From positions 9,468 to 73,467 of the IMG/VR virus record IMGVR_UViG_3300012930_000012: a DNA stretch of 64,000 bases. The stretch is one strand, 5' to 3'. Below, one piece after another: positions 16,193 to 33,797 of this stretch. The notes under the pieces were generated by a model. It was not told the origin of the DNA and ran no database searches. It saw only the letters and a list, made by a program, of their open reading frames with translations. Source of the DNA: a virus. Within the stretch, counting starts at the first letter, position 1. Each line of letters starts with the position of its first letter. A program made the position numbers and the translations under genes.

Positions 16193-16482
16193 AGACGGAA
16201 GTGTGCGACCACGATTGCTTTGCTGAGGCGGCCACAGAATCACAGGCCATGCCAGGCCGGGTGGGCTGGTTCATCTACGTGGCCAACGATGACGACTCTC
16301 ACACCCATTTCCGCGGCAACACGGCGTTCGCCGGCAGGGCGCTGGCGGAGCTAGCCCAGAAGGTTATTGCCGGGCACGAGAACACCGGCTGTGTGCAATG
16401 TGACACCACGGCCTTGGCTCTTGCGAATGCTTTGAAGGTTTACCAGGCCACCATGGCATACGCCCGGGGACCAAAATGCTAA
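16189..16482 (+). CDS. Hypothetical protein
   Basis: RBS AAGGAG; coupled to neighbours. Confidence 0.5.
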   Translation: MKTEVCDHDCFAEAATESQAMPGRVGWFIYVANDDDSHTHFRGNTAFAGRALAELAQKVIAGHENTGCVQCDTTALALANALKVYQATMAYARGPKC

Positions 16483-17366
16483 CCCCCTTGGGCGCCCTTG
16501 TGCATTGGGTGAGAGAACGCGAATTGATTCGCGTTCAGAAAGACCGCGGTGAACCTTTCCCGTGGACCGACGATAAGATCCTTCGCACCTATCGCTTTTG
16601 CAACGTGCGCCGCGAGGATGACCGGGTCACCGTATGGATCGCGAAGAACATTCGCGAGCCATACGCGGACCACCATCACCTCTGGTTCATGCTGTGCACG
16701 GCCAGAATGATAAACTGGCCGCACACGTTGGGCCTCCTTATAGGAGACCCAACACGCCCCCCAGAAGAGCGCATCTACCCCAACGCCTGGCCGGACTCAG
16801 CGTCCTTCTCACCCTCCGCCATGGCCGATGGGCTCGAGGACGTAGCGTCCATGGGCAAGGCGTTCACGGGCGCCTACATCATCCCATCGCCCGGCAAGGG
16901 GGAAAAGAAGCCACGCTGGATGGCCCAATGGGTGCTGGGTAACCTGTGGAAGGCCCGCGCCAGGTTTGAAACCCACTTTTCCCGCAATCCGTCGCTGCGG
17001 AGCACGCACAACCTTTTGACGACATTTGATTGCTGGGGCAACTTCTTAGCCTACCAGGCCATCATCGACATGCGCCACACGAGCTTGCTCTCAGAGGTCC
17101 CTGATCGGAACACCTGGTGCGCGGCCGGGCCAGGGACGATAAGAGGTCTGAATCGCCTTGCGGGCAGACCTCTTATCGCCCCCCTGACCCAGGAGCGAGC
17201 GCTCCTTGAAATTCAGTCACTCCAGCCCGTGGTGTGTCGGGAAACTGGCATGGACTTTGAACTGTACGAAATAACCGGCATCCTCTGTGAGACCGACAAA
17301 TACCTCCGGGTAATGAACGGTGAGGGGGAGCCGCGGGCACGCTACGTGCCGGGGAGGGGGGCGTGA
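16476..17366 (+). CDS. aGPT-Pplase1 / 5-hmdU DNA kinase helical-domain family (base hypermodification)
   Basis: PWTDDKILRTYRFCNVRREDDRVT, FTGAY, FLAYQAIID, GPGTIRGL, LCETDKY.R match the family pattern as I recall it. Confidence 0.8.
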   Translation: MLTPLGALVHWVRERELIRVQKDRGEPFPWTDDKILRTYRFCNVRREDDRVTVWIAKNIREPYADHHHLWFMLCTARMINWPHTLGLLIGDPTRPPEERIYPNAWPDSASFSPSAMADGLEDVASMGKAFTGAYIIPSPGKGEKKPRWMAQWVLGNLWKARARFETHFSRNPSLRSTHNLLTTFDCWGNFLAYQAIIDMRHTSLLSEVPDRNTWCAAGPGTIRGLNRLAGRPLIAPLTQERALLEIQSLQPVVCRETGMDFELYEITGILCETDKYLRVMNGEGEPRARYVPGRGA

Positions 17367-17716
17367 CCGAATTCCTTCAGATGAGCGATGTGCCCGGTGT
17401 CAAAGGCGGGAGAATTAAGGGTGCTTGGGCCGTCTCCGTGACGGATTGCATGAATAAACTAAGGCGATACCGTTGCGTCACGAGCGCGGGGACAAATGGT
17501 GCCATAAACGTGTGGAGAGCTGATGGAGGAAAATATCGCTGTACATTCTGCGTCTACCGTGTGGCCAGAAGTGAGCCCATTTACCGCACCAAAAAAGAAG
17601 TGAAAGCGTGGCTAAAAATTTGGTTCCCTAGACAATACAGAACCTCGCCTGGGGGCACCGGGCACGCCGTTCGCCGGCAGCGGCTACAAACCGCCGGCAA
17701 TAGGAGAAGACCATGA
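17363..17716 (+). CDS. Hypothetical basic protein
   Basis: Coupled ORF with lower GC than its flanks. Confidence 0.45.
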   Translation: MTEFLQMSDVPGVKGGRIKGAWAVSVTDCMNKLRRYRCVTSAGTNGAINVWRADGGKYRCTFCVYRVARSEPIYRTKKEVKAWLKIWFPRQYRTSPGGTGHAVRRQRLQTAGNRRRP

Positions 17717-18564
17717 CTGAAGAAGTGAAGAGTGGGCAAGAAAATCCGTTACCTCCTACCCCGCAAGCGGGCCAGGAGGTAACCGTTTACGACCCTGGCA
17801 GCGATGCCGGGGCGGGCATGGAAAATGTCACCCGTGATGAATACGCCATACCATTCATCCGCATCCTTGACGCCAAGAGCCCACAAGTATCCCCGCCGGC
17901 AGCCGGTGGCATACCGGGCGCCAAGCCGGGGTCCATTTTTAACGTCTCGACCAACGAGGTCTACGACGGGGATAAGGGTGTAGAATTTATCCCCGTGCAC
18001 CGCGACCACCACTTCGTGGAATGGATTCCAAAGAAGGAGGACGGCTCCGGTGGCGGCTTTGTCGGCATCCGGGCGGTGGACGATCCTTTGGTCACGGAGC
18101 TGCGGGCCAAGCACGGCCAGTTCGGTAAGCTCCCCACGAGCGACGGCCACGAGCTGGCGGAAACCTATTACCTGTACGGCTTGCTGGTGGTGGAGGGCAT
18201 GGCCACCCCGGTGCTCATTGGTTTTTCCAGCACGCAGATAAAAAAGTACCGCAACTTCATCACCCGGGTCATGGGCATCACGTACCAGGGGGAGAAGACG
18301 GCCGCCAATCCCAACGGGATCATACGACCTCCTATGTGGGCGCACCGCTGGCGCTTTCAAACGGTCTTCGAGAAGAAGGGAACGTTTTCCTGGTACGGCT
18401 GGCGCATTGGCTTGGTGGAGGACCCACCGCTCAAAAGCCGGCTTAAAACCACGGACCCGTTCTACATCCAGGGTCGGGAACTTTACAACACCATCAAAGA
18501 AGGGCGCGTCGTGGTGAAACACGACACCGAAAAGCAGCCCGTGGACGAAGAAATACCGTTCTAA
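17713..18564 (+). CDS. ssDNA-binding/annealing protein
   Basis: GAGMENV...IPFIRIL..SPQV, FSSTQIKK, WYGW; acidic C-terminal tip DEEIPF. Confidence 0.7.
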   Translation: MTEEVKSGQENPLPPTPQAGQEVTVYDPGSDAGAGMENVTRDEYAIPFIRILDAKSPQVSPPAAGGIPGAKPGSIFNVSTNEVYDGDKGVEFIPVHRDHHFVEWIPKKEDGSGGGFVGIRAVDDPLVTELRAKHGQFGKLPTSDGHELAETYYLYGLLVVEGMATPVLIGFSSTQIKKYRNFITRVMGITYQGEKTAANPNGIIRPPMWAHRWRFQTVFEKKGTFSWYGWRIGLVEDPPLKSRLKTTDPFYIQGRELYNTIKEGRVVVKHDTEKQPVDEEIPF

Positions 18565-18626: not shown

Positions 18627-20156
18627 ATGTCACTTGCCGGTGATTTCAAACGCCTGTTCGATGGGCTAGACCGCTCTTACGGCCGCTATGTCGTGCCGAC
18701 CGGCGCGCGTCCAAACGATAAGGGCAAGCTCCACGACCCATCCTGGGCACGCACCGTGCACGGGGAGGTAACGCTTGAGCTTTGGGAACAGCACCTTGAA
18801 GGACGCTTTGGGCTAGGGATCGTTCCCATTAGGGACGATGCCACGTGTGTCTTTGGCGCCATAGACGTTGACATCTATCCGTTGGATCTTATAGACCTTG
18901 TAGCCTACGTTAAAAAGATGGAACTCCCCTTGGTGGTGTGCCGCACCAAATCTGGCGGCGCCCACCTGTACTTGTTTCTCACAGCCCCCGCCTCGGCGGA
19001 GCTTGTGAGAAGCAAGCTAATGGAATGGGCCGTGGTGCTGGGCTACCCCGGCGTTGAAGTATTCCCCAAGCAAACCAGGCTAGCCTCCGAAAAAGATGAT
19101 GGTTCCTGGATCAATGCACCCTACAACGGTGGCAAACGATCAACCAGGTACGCGCTTAAACCCGACGGTGCCGCCATGTCGTCGGAGGAGTTTGTCATCG
19201 CTGCGCAACGCTCAGCCATAACCCCGCAAAAACTGGCCGACTTTGAAATCCCCGCCGATGAAACCTCCGGCGACCTATTCTTAGGCGGCCCCCCTTGCCT
19301 CCAGACGCTATCCCGTAAGGGGTTTGGAGATTGGCAGAACAATGGGCTGTTCAACGTGGCGGTCTACCTCCGTAAGCGATGGGGCGACGGTTGGGAGGAC
19401 AGGCTCGACGCTTACAATCATAAGTACATGAACCCGCCGGTCTCCTCGAAAGATTTAGCCAACATCATCAAGTCGGTTAAGAAAAAAGCGTACTCGTATA
19501 TGTGCAAGCAAGAGCCCATCTGCGGCGTGTGCAACCGCCAGGTTTGCCTCACTCGGGACTTTGGTGTGGGCGGCCTTGGCGACGACCCCGGCGCCGTGCT
19601 GGGGGAGCTGTTGAAGCTCGAGACCGACCCGCCCACCTATATTTGGGACGTGGATGCGGCCCGTATTGAACTTACAGTCGATGACCTCATGGACCAGCGG
19701 CGCTTCCACAAGCTGGTGGTACAGCGCCTTAACAAGTGGCCCAACATGGTCAAGCCATCTGTGTGGCAAACCATCGTCCGGGATCGGCTGGCCCGGGTTG
19801 AGGTGGTTGAAGTGCCCGAAGACGCCACGCGAGAGGGTCAGTTCTGGGTGCACGTGCAACGGTTTTGCACCTCCAAGGTTCGCGGCCGGAGCATGGATGA
19901 GCTATTGCTGGGAAAGCCTTTCACCGAGGATGGCCGCACCTACTTTTGCTCGACCGACCTCATCCAGTATTTGAACCAGCACCGTTTTAACGGAGTCACC
20001 GATAAGGAGGTTTACAAGTGGATGCGTAAACGCGGGGTGACGCACCACTCAGGCAACCTCAAGGGCAAGTTCGTCAACTACTGGAGCTTGCCGGCATTTC
20101 CAGAGCAAACCGTGGACCACGATGTACCGCACGCGGCCCCGGTGGAGCGTATGTAA
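18627..20156 (+). CDS. AEP-superfamily primase (TOTE-like primase domain plus PriCT-like region)
   Basis: HLEG..GLG, FGAIDVD (DxD), RTKSGGAHLYLF, EVFPKQ, GPPCL, Cys cluster C..EPI...CN...C. Confidence 0.8.
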   Translation: MSLAGDFKRLFDGLDRSYGRYVVPTGARPNDKGKLHDPSWARTVHGEVTLELWEQHLEGRFGLGIVPIRDDATCVFGAIDVDIYPLDLIDLVAYVKKMELPLVVCRTKSGGAHLYLFLTAPASAELVRSKLMEWAVVLGYPGVEVFPKQTRLASEKDDGSWINAPYNGGKRSTRYALKPDGAAMSSEEFVIAAQRSAITPQKLADFEIPADETSGDLFLGGPPCLQTLSRKGFGDWQNNGLFNVAVYLRKRWGDGWEDRLDAYNHKYMNPPVSSKDLANIIKSVKKKAYSYMCKQEPICGVCNRQVCLTRDFGVGGLGDDPGAVLGELLKLETDPPTYIWDVDAARIELTVDDLMDQRRFHKLVVQRLNKWPNMVKPSVWQTIVRDRLARVEVVEVPEDATREGQFWVHVQRFCTSKVRGRSMDELLLGKPFTEDGRTYFCSTDLIQYLNQHRFNGVTDKEVYKWMRKRGVTHHSGNLKGKFVNYWSLPAFPEQTVDHDVPHAAPVERM

Positions 20157-21298
20157 TGGACCTCAAACCCCTAAGCCCAGTAACCATTGACCGCGAGCGA
20201 ACAAAGCTGGGCAAACGCGGTGAGCTACGCTGGCTGCACGTAAGACAGCTGGTCGTGGACCCTCGATACCAGCGGGCGGTTGGCCTTAAAGGCACAGACA
20301 ATATCAAAAAGATCGCGAAGGAATTCTCCTGGAGCTTCTTTTCCCCGGTCATCGTCTCCCCACGAAAGAGCGGCCAATACGCAATAATAGACGGGCAACA
20401 CCGCGCCACGGCGGCCGTATCGCGTGGGGATATCGAGGAAATCCCGTGCCTGGTGCTGGCGGCAACACCAGAGGAAGAGGCAATGGCCTTCGCCAAGATC
20501 AACGGTACCGTAACAAAAGTCTCGCCGCTGGCCATCTTCCGCGCCGAGTTTATGGCGGCCAAGCCAGACGTGATGCGCCTAACCGAAATTGTCTTCCGCG
20601 CCGATGTTGTAATCTTGGGCTATCCCAAAACCAAAGACAAGATGCTGGTCGGGGAAACCATGTCTGTTGTGTCAATTAAAGATTGCCTACGCAAGTTTGG
20701 GGAAAAGGTTTTGGTGGCGGCCTTGCGGACCATTACCAAAACGGGGAATGGGAACCCTGGAATGCTAAAGGAAGAGGTTATATCCGGCACGTGCGACATA
20801 TTGTCCAATCACCCCCATTGGTGGGTAGATGAACCAAAGCTCTTAGCAACCGTGAATGCGGTTGGCATAGTGGAACTCCACAGGCGAGCATCCATAGCCA
20901 AAGGTGCCGCCGGAAAAGGCAGCTATCGCGAGCACTACGCCTCCGCGTTTCTATCAGCCGTAGCACCGGCCTTTAAACCCACCCAGGTAGCCGTGGGTGT
21001 CCATGCCCCCCTGGCTTCGCTACCTACACTACAAAAACCTGTCAACCACGATCGTGCTCTCATTGAGGCGGCCTTGGCCGCCGGCAAGGTACGACGGTTT
21101 GACACCTCAGATTCCAGTGAGTTTTGGGTGCTAGCGGAATACATGCTCCATCGCACTGGTAAGGAATACAAACTTCTTAAGCGCAAGCCATCGCTGGATG
21201 GCCGAATCCTTGATTGGGACAAGTTCTATGAACTTGTAAACCGCGAACGTGTCAAGGAAAAGAAACCGCCTATAACCCCCAAGCAAGGAGCAAAATGA
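20156..21298 (+). CDS. ParB/Srx-like N-terminal domain protein (DUF6551-like)
   Basis: LVVDPRYQR, IIDGQHRATAA, EEAMAFAKIN. Confidence 0.75.
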   Translation: MDLKPLSPVTIDRERTKLGKRGELRWLHVRQLVVDPRYQRAVGLKGTDNIKKIAKEFSWSFFSPVIVSPRKSGQYAIIDGQHRATAAVSRGDIEEIPCLVLAATPEEEAMAFAKINGTVTKVSPLAIFRAEFMAAKPDVMRLTEIVFRADVVILGYPKTKDKMLVGETMSVVSIKDCLRKFGEKVLVAALRTITKTGNGNPGMLKEEVISGTCDILSNHPHWWVDEPKLLATVNAVGIVELHRRASIAKGAAGKGSYREHYASAFLSAVAPAFKPTQVAVGVHAPLASLPTLQKPVNHDRALIEAALAAGKVRRFDTSDSSEFWVLAEYMLHRTGKEYKLLKRKPSLDGRILDWDKFYELVNRERVKEKKPPITPKQGAK

Positions 21299-25988: not shown

Positions 25989-26620
25989 GCGTGTACCTCA
26001 TTACCTACCGTAACTACTTGGAGCGTGTGCGGGTGTACCGCTATGAGACGATACAGGATGCGGATCGGGCGCTGGCGCTGCCGGACGCCGACCAGGCGGT
26101 AAGCGGCTTTGTTGCCTCCGTGCCGCACAACAGTGTGAATACGAGCACCACGCTCCTCCAGGATTTGCTTGACCAGTGGCGCAAGCCAGATGAACCTGAA
26201 CATGATCTTGGAACCCACGGCAAGGTGAAGCAACGCTTCTTTACCGTGCTTGAATCAACTTACGGCCACATTCCTCTGAGTGTGGCACCAGCCTTGCCGG
26301 CACCTGGCGCACCGGCCGCTGAAACCAACCCCGCGCCAACAATGGAGACTGCAATGGCAAAGAAGGCAAAAAAGACACCGAAGGCGAAAAAGGAAGCCAA
26401 CGGCCCAAAGGCGCCCCGCGCATTGAAGCAGGGCATGGTGTTCGCGCTCAAGGGCTTCGTGCTCAAGAACCCGGGCATCACGGACGAAGACTTGATGGCG
26501 AAGCTCAAGGGCGACGGCTTCAAGCCGGCCGAATCCTCGGTGGCCACGTTCCGCCAGGACTTTGTGCACTCCCTGAGGTTTCTCAACCTCCAGGGCTACA
26601 AGGTGCCGGAACCCGGCTAA
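25985..26620 (+). CDS. Putative DNA-binding protein with Lys-rich linker and C-terminal helical domain
   Basis: MAKKAKKTPKAKKE linker; internal in-frame ATG at 26354 with its own GGAG. Confidence 0.6.
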   Translation: MSVYLITYRNYLERVRVYRYETIQDADRALALPDADQAVSGFVASVPHNSVNTSTTLLQDLLDQWRKPDEPEHDLGTHGKVKQRFFTVLESTYGHIPLSVAPALPAPGAPAAETNPAPTMETAMAKKAKKTPKAKKEANGPKAPRALKQGMVFALKGFVLKNPGITDEDLMAKLKGDGFKPAESSVATFRQDFVHSLRFLNLQGYKVPEPG

Positions 26621-27396
26621 TGTTGGACATACACACCTTCGCGTACTTGGATTCACCTACGCCGGTTCAGGTGCGCGAAGGTGTGTTCCTAAAGCGGGAC
26701 GATTTATTTCTCGCAGCTGGAGCACCGGGTGGCAAGGCCAGGACTTGCTGGCACCTGTCACAAGGCGCAAAGGGCCTTGTGACAGCGTCCAGCCGGGCAT
26801 CGCCACAAATGAACATTGTGGCCCGCATTGCCGCCCACCTGGGCATCCCAGCCAGGCTCCATTGCCCCCAGGGTGCTTTCACACCGGAGATGAACGAGGC
26901 CCGCTCCTTTGGAGCGGTCATCGTTCAGCATCGCGCCGGCTACAACTCGGTCATAAAGGCCCGCGCCAAGGCCGACGCTTTGACACTTGGTTGGACCCAC
27001 ATACCGTTTGGGATGGAATGCCAGGAGGCCGTGAAGCAAACGGCCACACAAGTGGCACATCTTCCGGCGGAAATACGCCGCGTGGTCATGGCCGTTGGTA
27101 GCGGCATGTCGCTGGCCGGCGTGCTCAATGGGCTCACCCAGCACCGGCTAAACATCCCCATCCTAGGTGTCGTGGTGGGCGCCGACCCCACGGCCAGGCT
27201 CACCCAGTACGCCCCACTATTCTGGCGCACTGTGGTGGAATTGGTGCAGCCCGGCATCGATTATCACAAACCCGCACCATTGACGGACATCGGAGATGTC
27301 CATCTTGACCCCATCTACGAGGCCAAGTGTTTGCCATATCTTAAAGAGGATGACCTCTTTTGGCTGGTGGGCATACGGGCGAGTGCCATGCAATGA
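26620..27396 (+). CDS. PLP-dependent enzyme (fold type II, ACC deaminase/cysteine synthase-like)
   Basis: LKRDDL...GGKAR (Schiff-base Lys), SPQ, VGSGMSLAG phosphate loop, LDPIYEAK. Confidence 0.85.
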   Translation: MLDIHTFAYLDSPTPVQVREGVFLKRDDLFLAAGAPGGKARTCWHLSQGAKGLVTASSRASPQMNIVARIAAHLGIPARLHCPQGAFTPEMNEARSFGAVIVQHRAGYNSVIKARAKADALTLGWTHIPFGMECQEAVKQTATQVAHLPAEIRRVVMAVGSGMSLAGVLNGLTQHRLNIPILGVVVGADPTARLTQYAPLFWRTVVELVQPGIDYHKPAPLTDIGDVHLDPIYEAKCLPYLKEDDLFWLVGIRASAMQ

Positions 27397-28166
27397 CTGA
27401 CGACCTCCTCTTTAGCAAGAAGAGTCAAAACCGCCTCAACGAAATCATGAGCGGAACGGAGGATGGTGGATTTTCAACCGGCACCTCGATCTTCGACCCC
27501 GTGCTGTGTGAACTGGTGTACCGTTGGTTCTGCCCAGGGGGGGGACAGATCATTGATCCCTTTGCCGGCGGGTCCGTGCGCGGCATCGTGGCCGCCAAGT
27601 TAGGCTATGCCTACACAGGTATTGACTTATCTAGCAGACAGCTGGAAGCAAACCGCATCCAGGCCGCCACCATTTGCAAGGATGGGCCAACGCCAACCTG
27701 GGTGGACGGCAACAGCCTGGAAATTGAAGCCTTACTGGAAGACGTGCGTGCGGACCTTGTATTTTCCTGCCCACCATACGCTGATTTAGAAATTTATTCG
27801 GATGACGAGCGGGACCTCTCAACCATGCCGTATGAAGAATTCCGTTCGGTGTACACAGAAATCATCGCCGCGTGCGTGCGGATGCTTAAACCCAACCGCT
27901 TCGCCTGTTTCGTGGTGGGGGACATCCGCGATAAAGACGGCTTTTACCGCGGGTTCCCATGGCATACGGTCCAAGCGTTCCAAGATGCAGGTGCCCGGCT
28001 GTACAACGAGGCCATCCTTGTTACGGCCGTGGGGAGCTTGCCGGTGCGCATCACCCGGCAATTTTCAGGCGGGCGCAAGCTAGGCAAGACGCATCAGAAC
28101 TTATTTGTCTTTTGCAAGGGAGATCCCATGTTAGCGGCGAGGGCGTGCGGAGCCAAAGATGACTAG
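27393..28166 (+). CDS. SAM-dependent amino-DNA methyltransferase catalytic body (N-terminal module absent)
   Basis: TSIFDPVLCE, motif I DPFAGGSVRG, motif IV SCPPY, RKLGKTHQN; ATGA-coupled to the PLP enzyme. Confidence 0.88.
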   Translation: MTDDLLFSKKSQNRLNEIMSGTEDGGFSTGTSIFDPVLCELVYRWFCPGGGQIIDPFAGGSVRGIVAAKLGYAYTGIDLSSRQLEANRIQAATICKDGPTPTWVDGNSLEIEALLEDVRADLVFSCPPYADLEIYSDDERDLSTMPYEEFRSVYTEIIAACVRMLKPNRFACFVVGDIRDKDGFYRGFPWHTVQAFQDAGARLYNEAILVTAVGSLPVRITRQFSGGRKLGKTHQNLFVFCKGDPMLAARACGAKDD

Positions 28167-28404
28167 TCTACCCATTGACTATCGACGCCGGCCCTGGAAG
28201 GCCAAGTACATAGACACCGAGTGTCTAGCAACAAATCGCTGGTGCATCTTGGGAGAATATCAAGATGGCACTGTTAGCATCACAGACGGAACAGACGATA
28301 TAATGGAACACGTGCCAAAAGACGTGGCTCAAAACATCGTTGATGCCCGTAACACCTTTGTTGACACCCTCATGAAGCACATTGGCTATGCACGAAACGA
28401 TTAA
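28159..28404 (+). CDS. Hypothetical protein, 81 aa
   Basis: RBS GGAG; overlaps both neighbours. Confidence 0.55.
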   Translation: MTSLPIDYRRRPWKAKYIDTECLATNRWCILGEYQDGTVSITDGTDDIMEHVPKDVAQNIVDARNTFVDTLMKHIGYARND

Positions 28405-29344
28405 CTTCCTAAAACGCGCACTATCCCGCGCCCCTAATGCCGGCATGTTCGGCTGCTACCACGTGAGCGAAGGCTACATGTTCGCCCAGAACGAAAGCCT
28501 CCAGGCCGTGGTCCCGCTTGAATCATCCGATAGCTTTTCCGTGCCCGGCGAGGAGCTTGAAGCCATGCTGGCGCGGATGCACAGCGACCCACACGTGGAA
28601 ATAGGCGACGGCGAGCTACGCATCAAGAGCGGTAGGCTCCGCGGCAACATCCCGTGCGTGCCCGGCACCCCACCCAGCATATTCACCCGCGACGTCGACT
28701 GGCTCCCCCTGCCCGACGCCCTGGTGCCGGCGTTGCAAAAGGCCACCCAGTTCCTCGTGGGCACCAGCCTCATCGGGTGGACAGGGGGCGTGCGGCTCAT
28801 GGACGGGCGATTGACGACCGTCAATAATCTGTGCGGCATTGACTTGGCGGTGCCGGGTTGGCAATCCACGCCATCAATTCTCACAAAGGATGGGGCGGAG
28901 TTTTTGATGGCAGATCCGCCGTGCGATTACGCGGCCAAGGCTGGGGCTTTGTTGTTCCGCTGGCCCGATGACCGCTCGGTCCAGTGCCAGCTTATTGACC
29001 AGGTGATGCCTGAGCTGGTGGACGACATCTTTGCCAAGGCTGGCCAGGATGCGCCCGTGGAAATAACCGCCGAGTGGCGCGATGCCTTCGCGGATGCCGC
29101 AGCCATATCAGATGAGACGGTCGAGCTACATGCGGGTCATCTCAAGGTGGGTAAAGGCTCATCCAAGGTCACCCTAGAGGTTTCCACGGCTGTGCCGGCG
29201 GACCACGTGTCGTACTGGAACACCAAGGTGCTGGCTCCGATGGTAGCGGTGGCCACCCATTGGAATCCGCTGGCGCACCCCAAGCCGGCGCTGTTCCGTG
29301 GACCGGGGCTGTACGGCGTTGTGATGGGAGTGATGCGGCGATGA
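28388..29344 (+). CDS. Sliding-clamp (DNA Pol III beta)-like protein
   Basis: About 318 aa with a beta-clamp-like pattern (AQNE.L...F.VPG..L..., L.IKSGRLR, PALF.G...GVVMG); coupled to the polymerase. Confidence 0.6.
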   Translation: MHETINFLKRALSRAPNAGMFGCYHVSEGYMFAQNESLQAVVPLESSDSFSVPGEELEAMLARMHSDPHVEIGDGELRIKSGRLRGNIPCVPGTPPSIFTRDVDWLPLPDALVPALQKATQFLVGTSLIGWTGGVRLMDGRLTTVNNLCGIDLAVPGWQSTPSILTKDGAEFLMADPPCDYAAKAGALLFRWPDDRSVQCQLIDQVMPELVDDIFAKAGQDAPVEITAEWRDAFADAAAISDETVELHAGHLKVGKGSSKVTLEVSTAVPADHVSYWNTKVLAPMVAVATHWNPLAHPKPALFRGPGLYGVVMGVMRR

Positions 29345-31764
29345 GTGACAAGAAAGAAACCCCATCGCTCGCGGGTGGGCTAACGTTTGGGATGACCAGC
29401 GGCCCATACGATGGCCGCGAGGAGCGTCGTAAGAATAAGGCAAAGGTCGATAGTGCGTTGTACGGGGACGGGCTATTGGGGGATTCGCTTGCGCCCAAAC
29501 GTAGCGGCGAGCTGGCCAACAAGTTCATGATACCGCCGTTCACCGTGTTCAACGCGCGTGAGGGTTGGTGGCAGGATCGCAAGGCAGCCTGGCTGGCGCT
29601 GGGCATCCAGAGCGAGCTAGGGCGCGGTGGGGATGAAATTGCCGTGGCGGATGCCGCGGCGCTGGACAGCGCCCGCGCTCGAAGCAAGGCCAGTAGCCAG
29701 GCGGTAGTCGGCGGCCGTGGTACGGCCATGTCAAACGCTCTGGCACCCCGAAAACGCAACACCATCCATCGCGCAGACCCCAGCATAACCGTGGTGCATA
29801 ACCCACCCCCATTGATGGAGCGGGCGGCACCGTGGGTGGCCCCGTCAGAACTCCCATCACTTCGCGGCGTGAAACGATTATGCGCCGATGTTGAGACCAG
29901 GGATGAGCAACTGCTTGAAATAGGCCCCGGTTTCCACAGGGGGACCTCCTACATCGTGGGGCTCGGCATAGGCACCAACGATGGTCGGCGTTTCTACTTC
30001 CCCACCAGACACGAGGGTGGCGGTAACTTAGATGAGGGCGTGGTCCAAAAATGGGCGCGCGAGGAGCTAAACGCTTATGATGGCGAGCTGGTTGGCGCCC
30101 ATAACATCTACGATCTCGAGGCGCTAGGCACCTGGGGGGTCACGTTTCCTAACGTTAAGGTCCACCACGATATCCAGGTATGTGAACCCTTGCTGGATGA
30201 GTGGCGCAACTCGTACACACTGGAAGCCATCGCCCAGGACTACCTTGGCGAGGGCAAAGTGGAGGGTACGCTCCGGGAAGCCGCGGCGTTGCACGGCGCC
30301 ACCACCAATTCTCAAATCAAAAAGATCTTATGGAAATTGCCGGCCGGGTACGTGGGAGCTTACGCGGAGGGGGATGTCGATCTCCCTCTGCGCATTCTCC
30401 CGCTCCAGCTAAAGCGCCTCACGGAAGAAAACCTCGATGAAGTTTACACCGTGGAGCGCAAGCTCATCCCCATCTTGCTCGCCATGCGCCAGCGCGGGAT
30501 ACCCGTCAACACCGACCAGGCGGAGTACGTGCGGGAACAGCTCACTTTCACCCGCGATGCGGCGCTTAAGCGGGTACGGGATATCGCTGGCCCACAGGCG
30601 GAGCTTATGGCCCCGGAGAGCTTTGCCCAGGCGTTTGTGGACCGCGGGCTGACACCACCTCTAACACCTAGTTCGGGCAAGCCACGGAGCGGCGGAGGTT
30701 TTAACCCAGACAAGTTTTCCATCACCAAGGACTGGCTCAAGGCGCACCAGAACGACGAGCTGGCCGCAGCGCTGTTAGAGGGCCGCGGGGTAGAGCACAT
30801 CATCAACACCTACATCAACGGCCATATCCTAACGCACTCGGTCAACGGCCGGGTGCATTGTGAATTTAACCAGTTAAAATCAGAGGATGAAAAGGGAACC
30901 ATAGCCCGTTTCTCATCCTCCAACCCCAACATGCAAAATTTACCTATGCGGGAGGAAGAGCTGGCCGCCATGATCCGCGGCATGTTCCGCCCCGAGGATG
31001 GTGAGACCTGGGTGCGGCACGACCTCTCCCAAATTGAATATCGGCTACTGGCTCACTTTGCCGTTGGGCCGGGGTCTGAGGAGTGCCGGCGCCAGTACCG
31101 CGAGGACCCCAAGACCGACTACCACAAGCTGGTGGCCACCTGGCTTGGGATTGATCCCGGCGACAAGCACCGCCGAGTCCAGGTTAAAGGCATCAACTTC
31201 GCCAAGGGCTATGGTGCTGGGGCACGCAAGCTGGCCTACCTCATCGGTTGTTCGTTATCGGAGGCCGAGGAGTTCGTTGCCCTTTACGAACAAAAGTTAC
31301 CGTTCGCCAAGAGCACCTACGATGCCGCCATGCGATGGGCGGAAAAGCAAGGATACGTGACGACGATCCTTGGCCGCCGGCAGCGCTTCCTCCTTTGGGA
31401 ACCCTTTGACAACTACCAGCGCGAGAATCCTCCGTTACGGCACGAAGCCGCGCTTAAGGAGTACGGCCAGCGCATCAAACGCTTCAAGAGTTACGCCGCG
31501 CTCAACCGCAAGCTTCAAGGGTCCGGCGCCGACGTCATCAAGAAAGGCATGGTGGATGCTTACGAGGCCGGCACGTTTGCCGTACTCGGCGCCCCCCTGG
31601 TCACGGTGCACGACGAGCTAGGATGGTCGGTACCGAACACGCCTCAAGGTACTGAGGCGTGTTCAGTAGCCCATCGTTGCCTGGAAAAGGCAGTGACGCT
31701 CAAGGTGCCGGTGTACGTGGATGAAGGACGTGGCAAGGATTGGGGGGAGGCCAGCGCGGGATGA
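29341..31764 (+). CDS. polA: Family A DNA polymerase with 3'-5' exonuclease and an N-terminal methyltransferase-derived module
   Basis: Exonuclease DVET/YD/YAEGD; RFSSSNPNMQN; motif A DLSQIEYR; motif B RVQVKGINFAKGYG; motif C VHDEL; ~160-aa N-terminal extension. Confidence 0.92.
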   Translation: MSDKKETPSLAGGLTFGMTSGPYDGREERRKNKAKVDSALYGDGLLGDSLAPKRSGELANKFMIPPFTVFNAREGWWQDRKAAWLALGIQSELGRGGDEIAVADAAALDSARARSKASSQAVVGGRGTAMSNALAPRKRNTIHRADPSITVVHNPPPLMERAAPWVAPSELPSLRGVKRLCADVETRDEQLLEIGPGFHRGTSYIVGLGIGTNDGRRFYFPTRHEGGGNLDEGVVQKWAREELNAYDGELVGAHNIYDLEALGTWGVTFPNVKVHHDIQVCEPLLDEWRNSYTLEAIAQDYLGEGKVEGTLREAAALHGATTNSQIKKILWKLPAGYVGAYAEGDVDLPLRILPLQLKRLTEENLDEVYTVERKLIPILLAMRQRGIPVNTDQAEYVREQLTFTRDAALKRVRDIAGPQAELMAPESFAQAFVDRGLTPPLTPSSGKPRSGGGFNPDKFSITKDWLKAHQNDELAAALLEGRGVEHIINTYINGHILTHSVNGRVHCEFNQLKSEDEKGTIARFSSSNPNMQNLPMREEELAAMIRGMFRPEDGETWVRHDLSQIEYRLLAHFAVGPGSEECRRQYREDPKTDYHKLVATWLGIDPGDKHRRVQVKGINFAKGYGAGARKLAYLIGCSLSEAEEFVALYEQKLPFAKSTYDAAMRWAEKQGYVTTILGRRQRFLLWEPFDNYQRENPPLRHEAALKEYGQRIKRFKSYAALNRKLQGSGADVIKKGMVDAYEAGTFAVLGAPLVTVHDELGWSVPNTPQGTEACSVAHRCLEKAVTLKVPVYVDEGRGKDWGEASAG

Positions 31765-32234
31765 TACTCTCACTTCAAACCATCAGGGATGCGGGCATCA
31801 TATCGCCATGGTGTGAACGCAGCGAGTTCAAAGGCCGCCATGGGGTGCTCACCTACGGGGCCTCCAGCGCCGGGTACGACATCCGCGCTGAGTTTGATTC
31901 AAAGGAGCGCCTTGCGTTCGTGGAGCTGCGCCCAGGGGGGTTCAGGCTGGCGTCCACGGTGGAGCGTTTTACCATGCCGACCGACGTGGTGGGCATTGTC
32001 CATGATAAAAGCTCGTGGGCTCGCCGCGGCCTGTGCGTGCAGAACACGGTCATAGAACCCGGGTGGTGCGGATACCTCACTCTGGAACTAACCAACCATG
32101 GGGTTGGTTGGTTGCATCTAGAGCGCGGGGTACCGCTGGCTCAAGTGGTGTTCCACCGGCTGGATAAGCCATCGGAACGGCCCTACACCGGCAAGTACCA
32201 GGACCAGGCCCGTGGGCCGCAGGAGGCAAAGTGA
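31761..32234 (+). CDS. dcd: dCTP deaminase / trimeric dUTPase family
   Basis: SAGYDIR, HDKSSWARRG, NTVIEPGWCGYLTLE, Y.GKYQDQ. Confidence 0.85.
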   Translation: MILSLQTIRDAGIISPWCERSEFKGRHGVLTYGASSAGYDIRAEFDSKERLAFVELRPGGFRLASTVERFTMPTDVVGIVHDKSSWARRGLCVQNTVIEPGWCGYLTLELTNHGVGWLHLERGVPLAQVVFHRLDKPSERPYTGKYQDQARGPQEAK

Positions 32235-32425: not shown

Positions 32426-32865
32426 ACCTCAAGGATAAGGTGTTTGCCGCGCTCGAGAATGCCCTGGCCAACGGCTACAACATGCGCGCGGACCCTGTTG
32501 ACTCAGTGTGCGTGGACCTGTGCACCTACGACGCCGATCTCGAGGATTACGATCCCGGGGAGTTGCGGGTGCACGTAACAGAATGGCAAATGGAGAAAAA
32601 ACACATGCAGACCTTAGATTTAACAACACCAGACACCGATGGGTATATCCCCGACCTGAGGCTCTTTGGGTCCAAGTGGCGGCACGCCGGGAACGGGCTC
32701 ACGTACGAGATCACGGGGTTCGTGTTCTTCGGCGATGAGGACCGTTGGGCGGTTATACATCGACGTGATGGCGCCCCGGTCATGTTTTCGCGGACCGTCC
32801 GTAACTTCTTTGGGCAACGCGGCAATGAGCCACGGTACACCGTTGTGAATAAGGTGCCGCGATGA
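32422..32865 (+). CDS. Hypothetical protein with a DUF1653-like C-terminal part
   Basis: WRH.G.G..Y.I...V...R....F.R....F. Confidence 0.55.
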   Translation: MNLKDKVFAALENALANGYNMRADPVDSVCVDLCTYDADLEDYDPGELRVHVTEWQMEKKHMQTLDLTTPDTDGYIPDLRLFGSKWRHAGNGLTYEITGFVFFGDEDRWAVIHRRDGAPVMFSRTVRNFFGQRGNEPRYTVVNKVPR

Positions 32866-33797
32866 TAGCCGCTCAGGTCGTTTGCGACAGCATTAGCGTG
32901 CAGGAACATCGCCCGCTGACGTTCAAACTGCGATACCCGAAGTTCATCCATGGCGAGTTCATGACCCACCGCCTCATCAGCCGCAACGCGAGTTCGTCCC
33001 GTGCGATCCCGACGAGCAAGCTCATCGAGGAGGTGCGGTCGGACGCGCTCCGGGCCGGGCCGGTGTTCTGGGGCGCAAACCAGAAGGGAATGCAAGCAGT
33101 AGAAGAACTAAGCGATGACCATTACCAAGGCACTCGTTTATCCCCCCGAATGCTAGCGCAAAATTATTGGAAGGATGCCGCACTCGAAGCGATGCGGATC
33201 GCTGAAGTTATGGTTGAGATTGGCGTTCACAAGCAGATCGTCAACCGCCTTCTCGAGCCGTTCTCCCACATTAACGTGGTGGCCACCGCCACCGAGTGGG
33301 ACAACTTCTTCGGCCTCCGCCTGCACCGCGACGCCCAGCCCGAGATGCGGGCGCTGGCCGTGGCCATGTGGGAGGCGCGCAAGGCGAGCACGCCCCGTCT
33401 GCTGAGGCCCGGCGAGTGGCACCTGCCGTTCGTCGACGGAGACGATGGGAAGGGCCATCCGATAACGTGGGACGAGAAGCTGGACGACATACAAGTCGCT
33501 ATAAAAGTCTCCGTCGCCCGCTGCGCAAGAGTTTCTTACGAGAGCTTCGAGACCGGCAAGCGGTCCACCGTCGAGGAGGACCTGCGGCTGTATGATCGGC
33601 TCCTGGGCGCGCAGCCGCTCCACGCGAGCCCGGCTGAGCACCAGGCGACGCCGGACATCCAAGAATGGGTAACGGCTAATGAATTAGGACCGCAATGGCT
33701 TCATCTTGGAGAGCACGGTAATCTCGTCGGCTGGCGTCAGTACCGTAAGATGCTGCCGAACGAGGCCGTCGCGCCGCTGCCGGAGGGTTATTCGTGA
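32862..33797 (+). CDS. thyX: Flavin-dependent thymidylate synthase (phage type)
   Basis: EFMTHRLISRNASSSRAIP, HKQIVNRLLEPF, NFFGLR, ARCARVSY, HASPAEH. Confidence 0.85.
   Translation: MIAAQVVCDSISVQEHRPLTFKLRYPKFIHGEFMTHRLISRNASSSRAIPTSKLIEEVRSDALRAGPVFWGANQKGMQAVEELSDDHYQGTRLSPRMLAQNYWKDAALEAMRIAEVMVEIGVHKQIVNRLLEPFSHINVVATATEWDNFFGLRLHRDAQPEMRALAVAMWEARKASTPRLLRPGEWHLPFVDGDDGKGHPITWDEKLDDIQVAIKVSVARCARVSYESFETGKRSTVEEDLRLYDRLLGAQPLHASPAEHQATPDIQEWVTANELGPQWLHLGEHGNLVGWRQYRKMLPNEAVAPLPEGYS

Follow-up and report, generated by a model that had tools for sequence, protein, structure and literature searches.

Why would a phage DNA polymerase begin with a long segment that belongs to no polymerase? 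This question is raised by a 64,000-nucleotide stretch of viral DNA, called the window below, which comprises bases 9468-73467 of the 73,467-bp IMG/VR virus record IMGVR_UViG_3300012930_000012 (rated 100% complete by CheckV) and in which the gene of a family A DNA polymerase (PolA) lies downstream of a gene for the catalytic body of a methyltransferase-type enzyme. A first-pass annotation, made from the letters of the window, had read the start of PolA as the missing N-terminal module of that enzyme and had suggested that the polymerase thereby tethers the body to the replisome. The segment is indeed homologous to that part of the enzyme, and the answer that we consider fairly probable is that the polymerase carries a DNA-modification enzyme by means of its N-terminal module. 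The features on which this answer turns are the following, with expectation values given as E.

27393..28166, + strand: methyltransferase-type catalytic body, 257 residues (PF01555, E 7.7e-10)
29341..31764, + strand: family A DNA polymerase with N-terminal extension, 807 residues (PF00476 at residues 401-803, E 2.8e-54; phrog_17 at residues 175-803)
29356..29427, + strand: pre-module motif, PolA residues 6-29 (SL.GGLTF....PY type), conserved in several PolA fusions
29458..29628, + strand: methyltransferase N-module, PolA residues 40-96, core PPFTVFNAREGWWQDRKAAWLALGIQSELGRG (profile, alignment)
29629..29832, + strand: variable linker, PolA residues 97-164 (low identity; predicted local distance difference test score, pLDDT, below 50)
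29833..31764, + strand: 3'-5' exonuclease and polymerase domains, PolA residues 165-807 (Pfam, PHROGs, AlphaFold2 model)

The polymerase open reading frame (ORF) is open from 29260 to 31764; the gene before it ends at 29344, so that its stop overlaps the ATG of PolA at 29341. The first-pass annotation had described about 160 non-polymerase residues at its start, and we count 164 of them before the exonuclease domain, with no intervening stop; the motif that it quoted occupies residues 55-96, that is 29503-29628. The protein is a family A polymerase, with a PF00476 domain preceded by an exonuclease domain; in Pfam the DNA_pol_A match is confined to residues 401-803, and the first ~165 residues gave no match. 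The nearest PolA proteins of cultured phages are at most 39.7% identical to it. Its best NCBIfam model was DpoZ, the aminoadenine-incorporating polymerase, at 264.8 bits against a cut-off of 500; a Z-genome reading was rejected because this score lies under the cut-off and the genome holds no PF00709 (PurZ-type) match.

The homology of module and body to one family of enzymes far exceeds chance, judged by profile and database matches. The body covers positions 75-313 of the 316 in phrog_12517 (E 7.8e-97), and the N-terminus of PolA covers positions 21-68 of the same family (E 1e-3); the N-terminus further covers positions 147-233 of the 258 in phrog_15396, labelled 'ParB-like partition nuclease' (E 3.1e-14), and the body matches phrog_498 with E 2e-73. 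When the N-terminal 180 residues of PolA were compared by tblastn with 50,697 phage records, 12 records matched, none of the features listed under these matches was a polymerase, and the best two matches, 80.5% identical over residues 56-96, were methyltransferase genes of two Erythrobacter phages. In the 812-residue methyltransferase of Erythrobacter phage ZS04 the 80.5%-identical segment sits upstream of the body, which bears out the statement in the first-pass annotation that this motif normally precedes TSIFDPVLCE in one polypeptide. The two pieces match non-overlapping parts of the same full-length methyltransferases, as it had predicted, in phrog_12517, in ZS04 and in an alignment with 26 single-chain relatives. 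This alignment places the break directly after the GRG of the module: there PolA runs on as ...ELGRGGDE, and the start of the body, MTDDLLFSKK, aligns to the ..LL-GFS.. linker of the relatives. Each piece occurs once in the 73.5-kb genome, the module in PolA (profile E 2e-41) and the body in its own gene (profile E 2.9e-120), and the earlier observation that the gene at 27393 lacks the module segment is thus correct. Querying the PDB by sequence with the 180 N-terminal residues of PolA returned no match at E<=10.

The end of the gene upstream of the body, which encodes a pyridoxal-phosphate-dependent (PLP) enzyme, shows a codon-aligned similarity to the module (27361-27384, ..FWLVGIRAS, compared with 29590-29616, ..WLALGIQSE; score 22, a score reached by 5 of 300 shuffles). 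A recombination scar at the split points was considered and rejected, since the C-terminal strand of the PLP enzyme is shared among relatives, with a similar ..LFWN(L/V).. ending in ZS04, L009 and L036; the similarity is probably chance plus this conserved strand.

The body carries motif X (TSIFDPVLCE), motif I (DPFAGGS, within DPFAGGSVRG) and motif IV (SCPPY), the motif X and motif I block preceding motif IV in one Rossmann-type domain, and it lacks the N-terminal module. Residues F34, D35, P36, P56-G59 and P127-Y129 are invariant in 64 relatives. Compared with PDB entry 2zie the body is circularly permuted (query 106-192 on residues 27-117, query 34-85 on residues 220-271), and it consequently departs from the beta-class order of motifs IV-VIII, target recognition domain and motifs X-I-III with D/N/S-PPY. 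Its motif IV reads CPPY in place of D/N/SPPY, with a Cys whose conservation reaches at least 90% in the 64 relatives. The module is found neither in cis nor on an adjacent upstream ORF: its sole copy, borne by PolA, lies some 1.3 kb downstream of the stop of the body. Pfam gave no ParB match on PolA or on the body, and the module-bearing polypeptide has no ParB N-terminal domain; the sole weak PF02195 match in the genome (20 bits, with a cut-off of 26.3 bits) falls in a DUF6551 protein at 20156-21298. A model of a single-chain relative had a mean pLDDT of 76.9, with about 69-85 in the strand and helix of the module, and Foldseek aligned it in the PDB to generic class I methyltransferases only, over 204-229 of 309 columns (top matches 2as0, 5e71, 2cww and 3tma).

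How ordinary is it that module and body are encoded apart? A search of the full library with the N-terminal 180 residues of PolA returned 2004 cluster representatives at E<=1e-3, 678 of them at E<=1e-10, in which the module stands at the start of large proteins, alone in proteins of 70-150 residues, at the end of proteins of 200-290 residues, or in the middle of ParB-methyltransferases of 450-600 residues. Among 78 IMG/VR loci sampled by way of the module and holding both parts, these lay on one ORF in 34 and on different ORFs in 44; of these 44 split loci, 43 have the module ORF upstream of the body, and the remaining one, L005, has its module on PolA. A second sample of 80 IMG/VR loci, picked by body-specific patterns, contained 28 with the module in cis, 42 with it in trans (95-1882 nt upstream of the body match), 7 with less than 700 nt upstream and 3 without a module match; the module is present in 70 of the 73 loci that have at least 700 nt upstream. 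The counts from both samples include near-identical loci (for example L041/L042, L065/L066, L027/L028 and L071/L072), and L005/L183 and L101/L170 were taken as the same contigs in two collections. Because the two samples agree, the body appears almost never without the module, and a separate module is the majority state; module and body are near-obligate partners, and a separate module usually stands at the end of a ParB-like protein. The first-pass annotation had seen in the window a split gene with its halves in reversed order around a clamp gene. The order holds, and the split itself turns out to be commonplace (44 of 78; 42 compared with 28); as far as these comparisons go, what is unusual is the polymerase as carrier, not the split.

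Polymerases are a recurrent carrier. PolA residues 1-175 matched 265 proteins of 443-1413 residues, and ranks 1-24 of the best 120 are all DNA polymerases: 17 have PF00476 (the window protein included), and 7 have no Pfam match and belong to phrog_1252 'DNA polymerase', with E down to 9e-167. A profile built from seven phrog_1252 proteins that carry the module, five of which are from those 7, matches solved family B polymerases (1s5j at E 1.5e-9, 5mdn, Pol alpha and E. coli Pol II), so that two unrelated polymerase families bear the fused module. The layout of L005 is that of the window, with a PLP-enzyme (PALP) gene, body, clamp and module-PolA in this order, and L173 has body, clamp and module-PolA. 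L166 and L167 read PALP, body (68% identical to that of the window), clamp (39%) and module-PolB; their N-terminal residues are 66-67% identical to residues 4-98 of the window protein, and the proteins belong to different polymerase families beyond that point. L168 also bears the fusion. From L166 and L167 we infer what looks like a single cassette whose polymerase had its catalytic part swapped behind a kept N-terminal plug. Larger fusions occur as well: P0124 (1049 residues) is module-PALP-PolA, and P0193 (1334 residues) and an ORF of L009 (1086 residues) are module-body-PolA, the latter with a PLP-enzyme gene directly upstream. P0126, P0130 and P0136 are further polymerases that bear the module.

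This recurrence bears directly on whether the fusion could be an artefact, that is a misassembly, a frameshift error or a decaying remnant. The record is metagenome-derived, and no informative reads were found: one run (X1, 6% of sampled words) gave three small pieces, one of them a 151-nt contig identical to 29534-29684, which is too little to bear on assembly or expression, and no RNA data set was listed as sharing words with the window. Nevertheless, 16 other metagenomic PolA proteins and 7 PolB-like proteins, recorded under several sources, show this fusion, as do loci L005, L166-L168 and L173, so related phages do share it, as the first-pass annotation had asked one to verify. Because it recurs in 16 other PolA proteins and in L005 and L173, misassembly appears very unlikely, and with the module as the most conserved part of the protein we give the artefact explanation as a whole next to no credence.

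The conservation of the module is a second line of evidence. Among the 17 PolA fusions, which are 45-64% identical to the window PolA, the mean pairwise identity is 0.76 for the module (residues 40-96) and 0.84 for its core (62-96), compared with 0.56 for the exonuclease domain, 0.52 for the polymerase domain and 0.24 for the linker; 25 columns of the module are invariant. The module is the best conserved region of these polymerases, a pattern that suggests that it is under selection. The linker measures 65-206 residues, 52-70% of them A, P, G, S, T, K or Q, and is 68 residues long in the window. An AlphaFold2 model of the whole PolA, built from the alignment of the 17 fusions, had a mean pLDDT of 78.1 and was confident for residues 165-807; residues 1-158 mostly fell below 50, the exception being a helix at 76-86, and the N-terminal region is therefore without a confident fold of its own in this model.

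The pre-module motif (SL.GGLT[FWY] ... PY) was found by regular expression in 5 distinct ORFs of the loci then collected plus the window, namely in four polymerase fusions (the window, L005, L166 and L173) and in the body ORF of L036, where PolA has no module and the motif starts the body ORF. Looser forms occur in the linker between module and body of some single-chain enzymes, for example L008, L041 and L045. The motif could bind another part of the replisome such as the clamp. An intein-type insertion (PF14890) follows the ...IAR(F/L) motif in two module-bearing PolA proteins, P0005 and P0009, and the module-less PolA of L086 is also interrupted (1222 residues, three separated matches). The module-less family B-like polymerase at L101:8528-11872 lies in a stop-to-stop frame of ~1114 codons, with ~490 codons before the polymerase match.

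Does the module fit the body? Complex prediction with the body (64-row alignment) and PolA residues 36-100 (69 rows), the alignments being unpaired, placed the module on the body, which is what the first-pass annotation had expected of such a multimer model. The complex score was 0.82 (runs 0.82, 0.80 and 0.85), compared with 0.00 for the best of 3 controls; the mark set for this score is passed by 58 of 80 solved complexes and by 2 of 110 mismatched pairs. The runs share at least 65% of their contacts, and the partner pLDDT is at least 62. In the predicted complex the confident contacts of the module are F62, P66-R73, W77, R80, K81, W84, L85 and L87-L93, and those of the body are residues 31-45 (motif X), 59-69 (motif I), 80-94, 205-212 and 237. 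The module strand T68-F70 is predicted to pair with the body strand at about 205-212, and the module helix at about W76-L87 to pack, on the cofactor side of the body, against the helix of motif X and the loop of motif I. The prediction supports docking of the module onto the body, short of showing binding.

A contact on the cofactor side, at motifs X and I, might in this predicted structure close the active site as well as complete it, and one could imagine that the polymerase-borne module regulates the body, holding it inactive or titrating it until replication, and delivers nothing. The module is permanent and nearly invariant in the single-chain relatives, which argues for a constitutive part of the enzyme rather than an inhibitor, and we see only a slender chance for regulation of this kind.

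If the module belongs to the body, the two should be found together, and this is also where the opposite possibility can be judged, namely that the module serves the polymerase itself as a small DNA- or clamp-binding element and does not bind the body. In its favour, the module occurs in many contexts, free-standing proteins of 70-150 residues included, the AlphaFold2 model of PolA is uninformative on a partner, and the pre-module motif travels with the clamp-polymerase cassette. However, all five module-polymerase loci with an upstream flank (the window, L005, L166, L167 and L173) have a module-less body upstream, 1.2-2.6 kb from the module of the polymerase, in line with the 70 of 73 loci counted above, and four of the five have a PLP-enzyme match, L173 being the exception. 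The module-less relatives gave the reverse picture: within flanks of up to 10 kb, a match to body, PALP or module was found in 0 of 15 loci with module-less PolA, in 0 of 25 with module-less PolB and in 0 of 4 further module-less PolB loci, one of which duplicates an earlier locus, making 44 loci in total with this duplicate. The controls of the predicted interface, moreover, score zero. On this evidence a role for the polymerase itself is distinctly improbable. Genome-wide searches found no module in L085 (PolA 54% identical, genome 100% complete) or L086 (95% complete), and the body had no match in L086 and a marginal one in L085 (E 2.9e-4).

The mechanism that we favour can be put as follows. 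The first ~100 residues of PolA would be the separable docking subunit of a DNA-modification enzyme with two or perhaps three parts, whose catalytic body, a permuted N6/N4-methyltransferase-type Rossmann domain, would be supplied by the gene two ORFs upstream. In the cell the body would bind this module and need it for activity, and the 68-residue flexible linker before the exonuclease domain would leash the module. Each polymerase would carry one body, probably with the PLP enzyme along, and by acting at the fork the enzyme would mark phage DNA at the place and time of its copying. A ParB-like DNA-loading protein bears the same module in other phages; the module would thus be a plug, and the carrier would set the place of action.

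Another account grants that the module completes the enzyme and denies its location on the polymerase any spatial meaning: the fusion would serve co-expression or stoichiometry only, and the enzyme would act off the fork, for example post-replicatively as other hypermodification enzymes of phages do. The genes already overlap end to end in the same direction, most relatives bear the module on a ParB-like protein and not on a polymerase, L036 holds the module off PolA, and known thymidine hypermodification is described as post-replicative in the available text of PMC8989533. Yet a carrier taken at random is unlikely to be a polymerase in all 24 best matches (of the best 120 of 265) and in two families, fusions of the whole enzyme or of module and PALP to PolA recur, and the other common carrier, ParB, is also DNA-tracking. 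Action off the fork thus seems unlikely to us. The proposal of the first-pass annotation that the polymerase tethers the body to the replisome gains strong comparative support, because carriers belong to families A and B, whole-enzyme fusions exist and the body is absent from the flanks of module-less relatives; its label 'methyl', by comparison, is not established.

Several observations weigh against delivery by the polymerase. The family also exists as a single chain, and the pass in the complex prediction could reflect that likeness and not the binding of two proteins; the predicted interface locates the module only and has no bearing on whether the body is inactive without it. Many other carriers have a second motif (APGGS..P... 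type) after the module; the window PolA lacks it. Three of the 73 body-first loci, with 785-963 nt upstream, are without a module match; there the module may fall off the contig, separations of up to 1882 nt occurring elsewhere. The activity of the body is putative, and its motif IV has the CPPY form. In L036 the PolA (39% identical) has no module, which stands at the end of a separate small ORF beside PALP, body and clamp; the system can therefore exist without being attached to the polymerase. L085 and L086 are placed among the fused PolA proteins in a quick tree with Shimodaira-Hasegawa-like approximate likelihood ratio (SH-aLRT) support, in which L009 and L006 sit on very long branches and from which no order of events was drawn; since they nest there, the polymerase-borne module seems to be gained or lost readily.

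What would the enzyme write? The PLP enzyme encoded next to the body lies far under every NCBIfam cut-off. The closest phage relative is the PALP insertion in the ParB-methyltransferase of Pam4 (43% identity), and tblastn (E<=1e-3) found it in 8 phage records; a close relationship to M6 gp52 or ViI gp226 was rejected, as none of the 8 is named ViI or M6. PLP-enzyme matches at the same tblastn threshold occur in 31 of the 80 body-first loci, and among relatives this enzyme is joined to the body, inserted into it, or found between module and PolA. Because a PLP enzyme often accompanies or interrupts the body, its transfer of a methyl group is putative; methylation may be all that the core family does, the PLP enzyme adding further chemistry in part of the family. 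A bolder version, which we regard as doubtful, is that body, PLP enzyme and polymerase-borne module would form an obligate holoenzyme completed only on the replicative polymerase, writing a larger-than-methyl mark on nascent phage DNA, and that phages would have kept this 'modify as you copy' design while a family B polymerase replaced a family A one behind the same N-terminal plug. As an example, an amino-acid-type group could be taken from S-adenosylmethionine and then be trimmed by the PLP enzyme. Further components were noticed around the system: a 384-residue ORF without a Pfam match lies between the module ORF and the PLP enzyme at L036:304-1458, and P0067 (1059 residues) adds a PF05118 domain of the Asp/Asn hydroxylase type to PALP, ParB and methyltransferase. 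The system has further accessory enzymes.

The logic of a replication-tied or two-polypeptide methyltransferase has precedents in proteins unrelated to those of the window. Eukaryotic DNMT1 is recruited to forks through PCNA by a short motif and is not known to share a structural piece with the polymerase, and M.AquI is a methyltransferase made of two polypeptides. The closest known systems are the phage ParB-methyltransferase fusions (PF02195 plus PF01555; phrog_498, phrog_12517, phrog_15396), to which the window is alike in module, body and PLP partner and unlike in having no ParB domain, a module on the polymerase, the reversed order and a separate PLP gene. The ZS04 protein is arranged as ParB, module, motifs X and I, an inserted PLP-enzyme domain, and motif IV onward; Pam4 gp70 (829 residues, from a Pseudanabaena phage) shares this module, the divided body and the PLP insertion; and in Microcystis phage Mae-JY30 separate ORFs encode a ParB-like protein with the module at its end, a methyltransferase-type protein and the PLP enzyme. 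Fusions of ParB to N6/N4 methyltransferases are enriched in phages, according to the available part of PMC12704722.

Coupling of a DNA methyltransferase to a family A polymerase, which in the window is a predicted association, recalls M.EcoGIX and M.BceJIII, single-strand-specific plasmid methyltransferases for which a complex with PolI was proposed and whose engineered PolI fusions keep both activities, as the available text of that study states (Fomenkov et al. 2020, PMC7736820). As described there, that case concerns a proposed non-covalent complex with host PolI and man-made fusions, unlike the natural fusion to a phage polymerase seen here, which in L009 and P0193 comprises the whole enzyme; a tblastn search of 72,556 plasmid records with the module found nothing, and homology to the M.EcoGIX/M.BceJIII kind is unsupported for the module. 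Phage thymine dioxygenases that depend on ParB likewise need a separately encoded DNA-associated partner, in the part of the report available (PNAS 2026, PMC13229309); they differ in being Fe/2-oxoglutarate enzymes with a ParB partner and no polymerase, and no shared module is known from that part. M6 gp52 and ViI gp226 are described in the available text of PMC8989533 as PLP-dependent decarboxylases of amino-acid:nucleobase conjugates, ViI gp226 being modelled on a PLP-enzyme template (pdb 1j0a) that its authors call tryptophan synthase beta; as portrayed there they are PLP enzymes acting on DNA-borne groups.

The polymerase fusion is a variant of the split or ParB-borne phage methyltransferases and of polymerase-associated methyltransferases. 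Titles and abstract openings of the literature searched gave no description of a methyltransferase piece fused to a phage DNA polymerase, although the supplements of PMC12704722 and PMC13229309 might list such proteins, and neither the module nor the polymerase fusion is mentioned in the available portions of PMC7736820, PMC13229309 and PMC12704722. If the proposed mechanism is true, this would be, as far as our searches found, the first natural phage case of DNA modification hard-wired to the replicative polymerase, and the wiring would be split-domain complementation rather than a simple binding motif. It would explain how the phage marks all of its own new DNA and only that, and would give a rule for a large uncharacterised family, the 2004 module-bearing cluster representatives, in which the module is the plug and ParB or polymerase the vehicle. 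It would also provide a small natural device for tethering enzymes to a polymerase.

The remaining genes of the cassette complete a run of six same-direction ORFs with end-to-end overlaps in the ORF list, from the PLP-enzyme gene to a dCTP-deaminase-like gene (26620-32234).

26620..27396, + strand: PLP-dependent enzyme, PALP fold, 258 residues (Pfam PF00291, E 2.6e-13)
28159..28404, + strand: 81-residue ORF overlapping both neighbours (ORF list; no Pfam match)
28382..29344, + strand: sliding-clamp-like processivity factor, 320 residues (phrog_947 'DNA polymerase processivity factor', E 1.9e-21, residues 2-318)
31740-32234, + strand: dCTP-deaminase-like gene (Pfam and PHROGs matches)

The stop of the PLP-enzyme gene overlaps the start of the body (ATGA at 27393-27396). 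Homologues of the clamp stand in the equivalent position in L005 (49% identity), L166/L167 (39%) and L173 (36%). Megablast of 27361-31764 against the 50,697 phage records gave no match. The window also holds a gene set of the thymidine-hypermodification type, with a 5-hydroxymethyldeoxyuridine (5-hmdU) DNA kinase domain at 16476-17366 (PF18723, E 6.3e-43), a Pam3 gp34-like protein at 17713-18564, the DUF6551/ParB-like protein at 20156-21298, the dCTP-deaminase-like protein at 31740-32234 and a ThyX-like enzyme at 32862-33797; a primase of the archaeo-eukaryotic (AEP) type and a ribonucleotide reductase are among the nearby genes as well. By their domain matches these nearby genes point to a thymidine-hypermodifying phage, which may hold two distinct DNA-modification systems.

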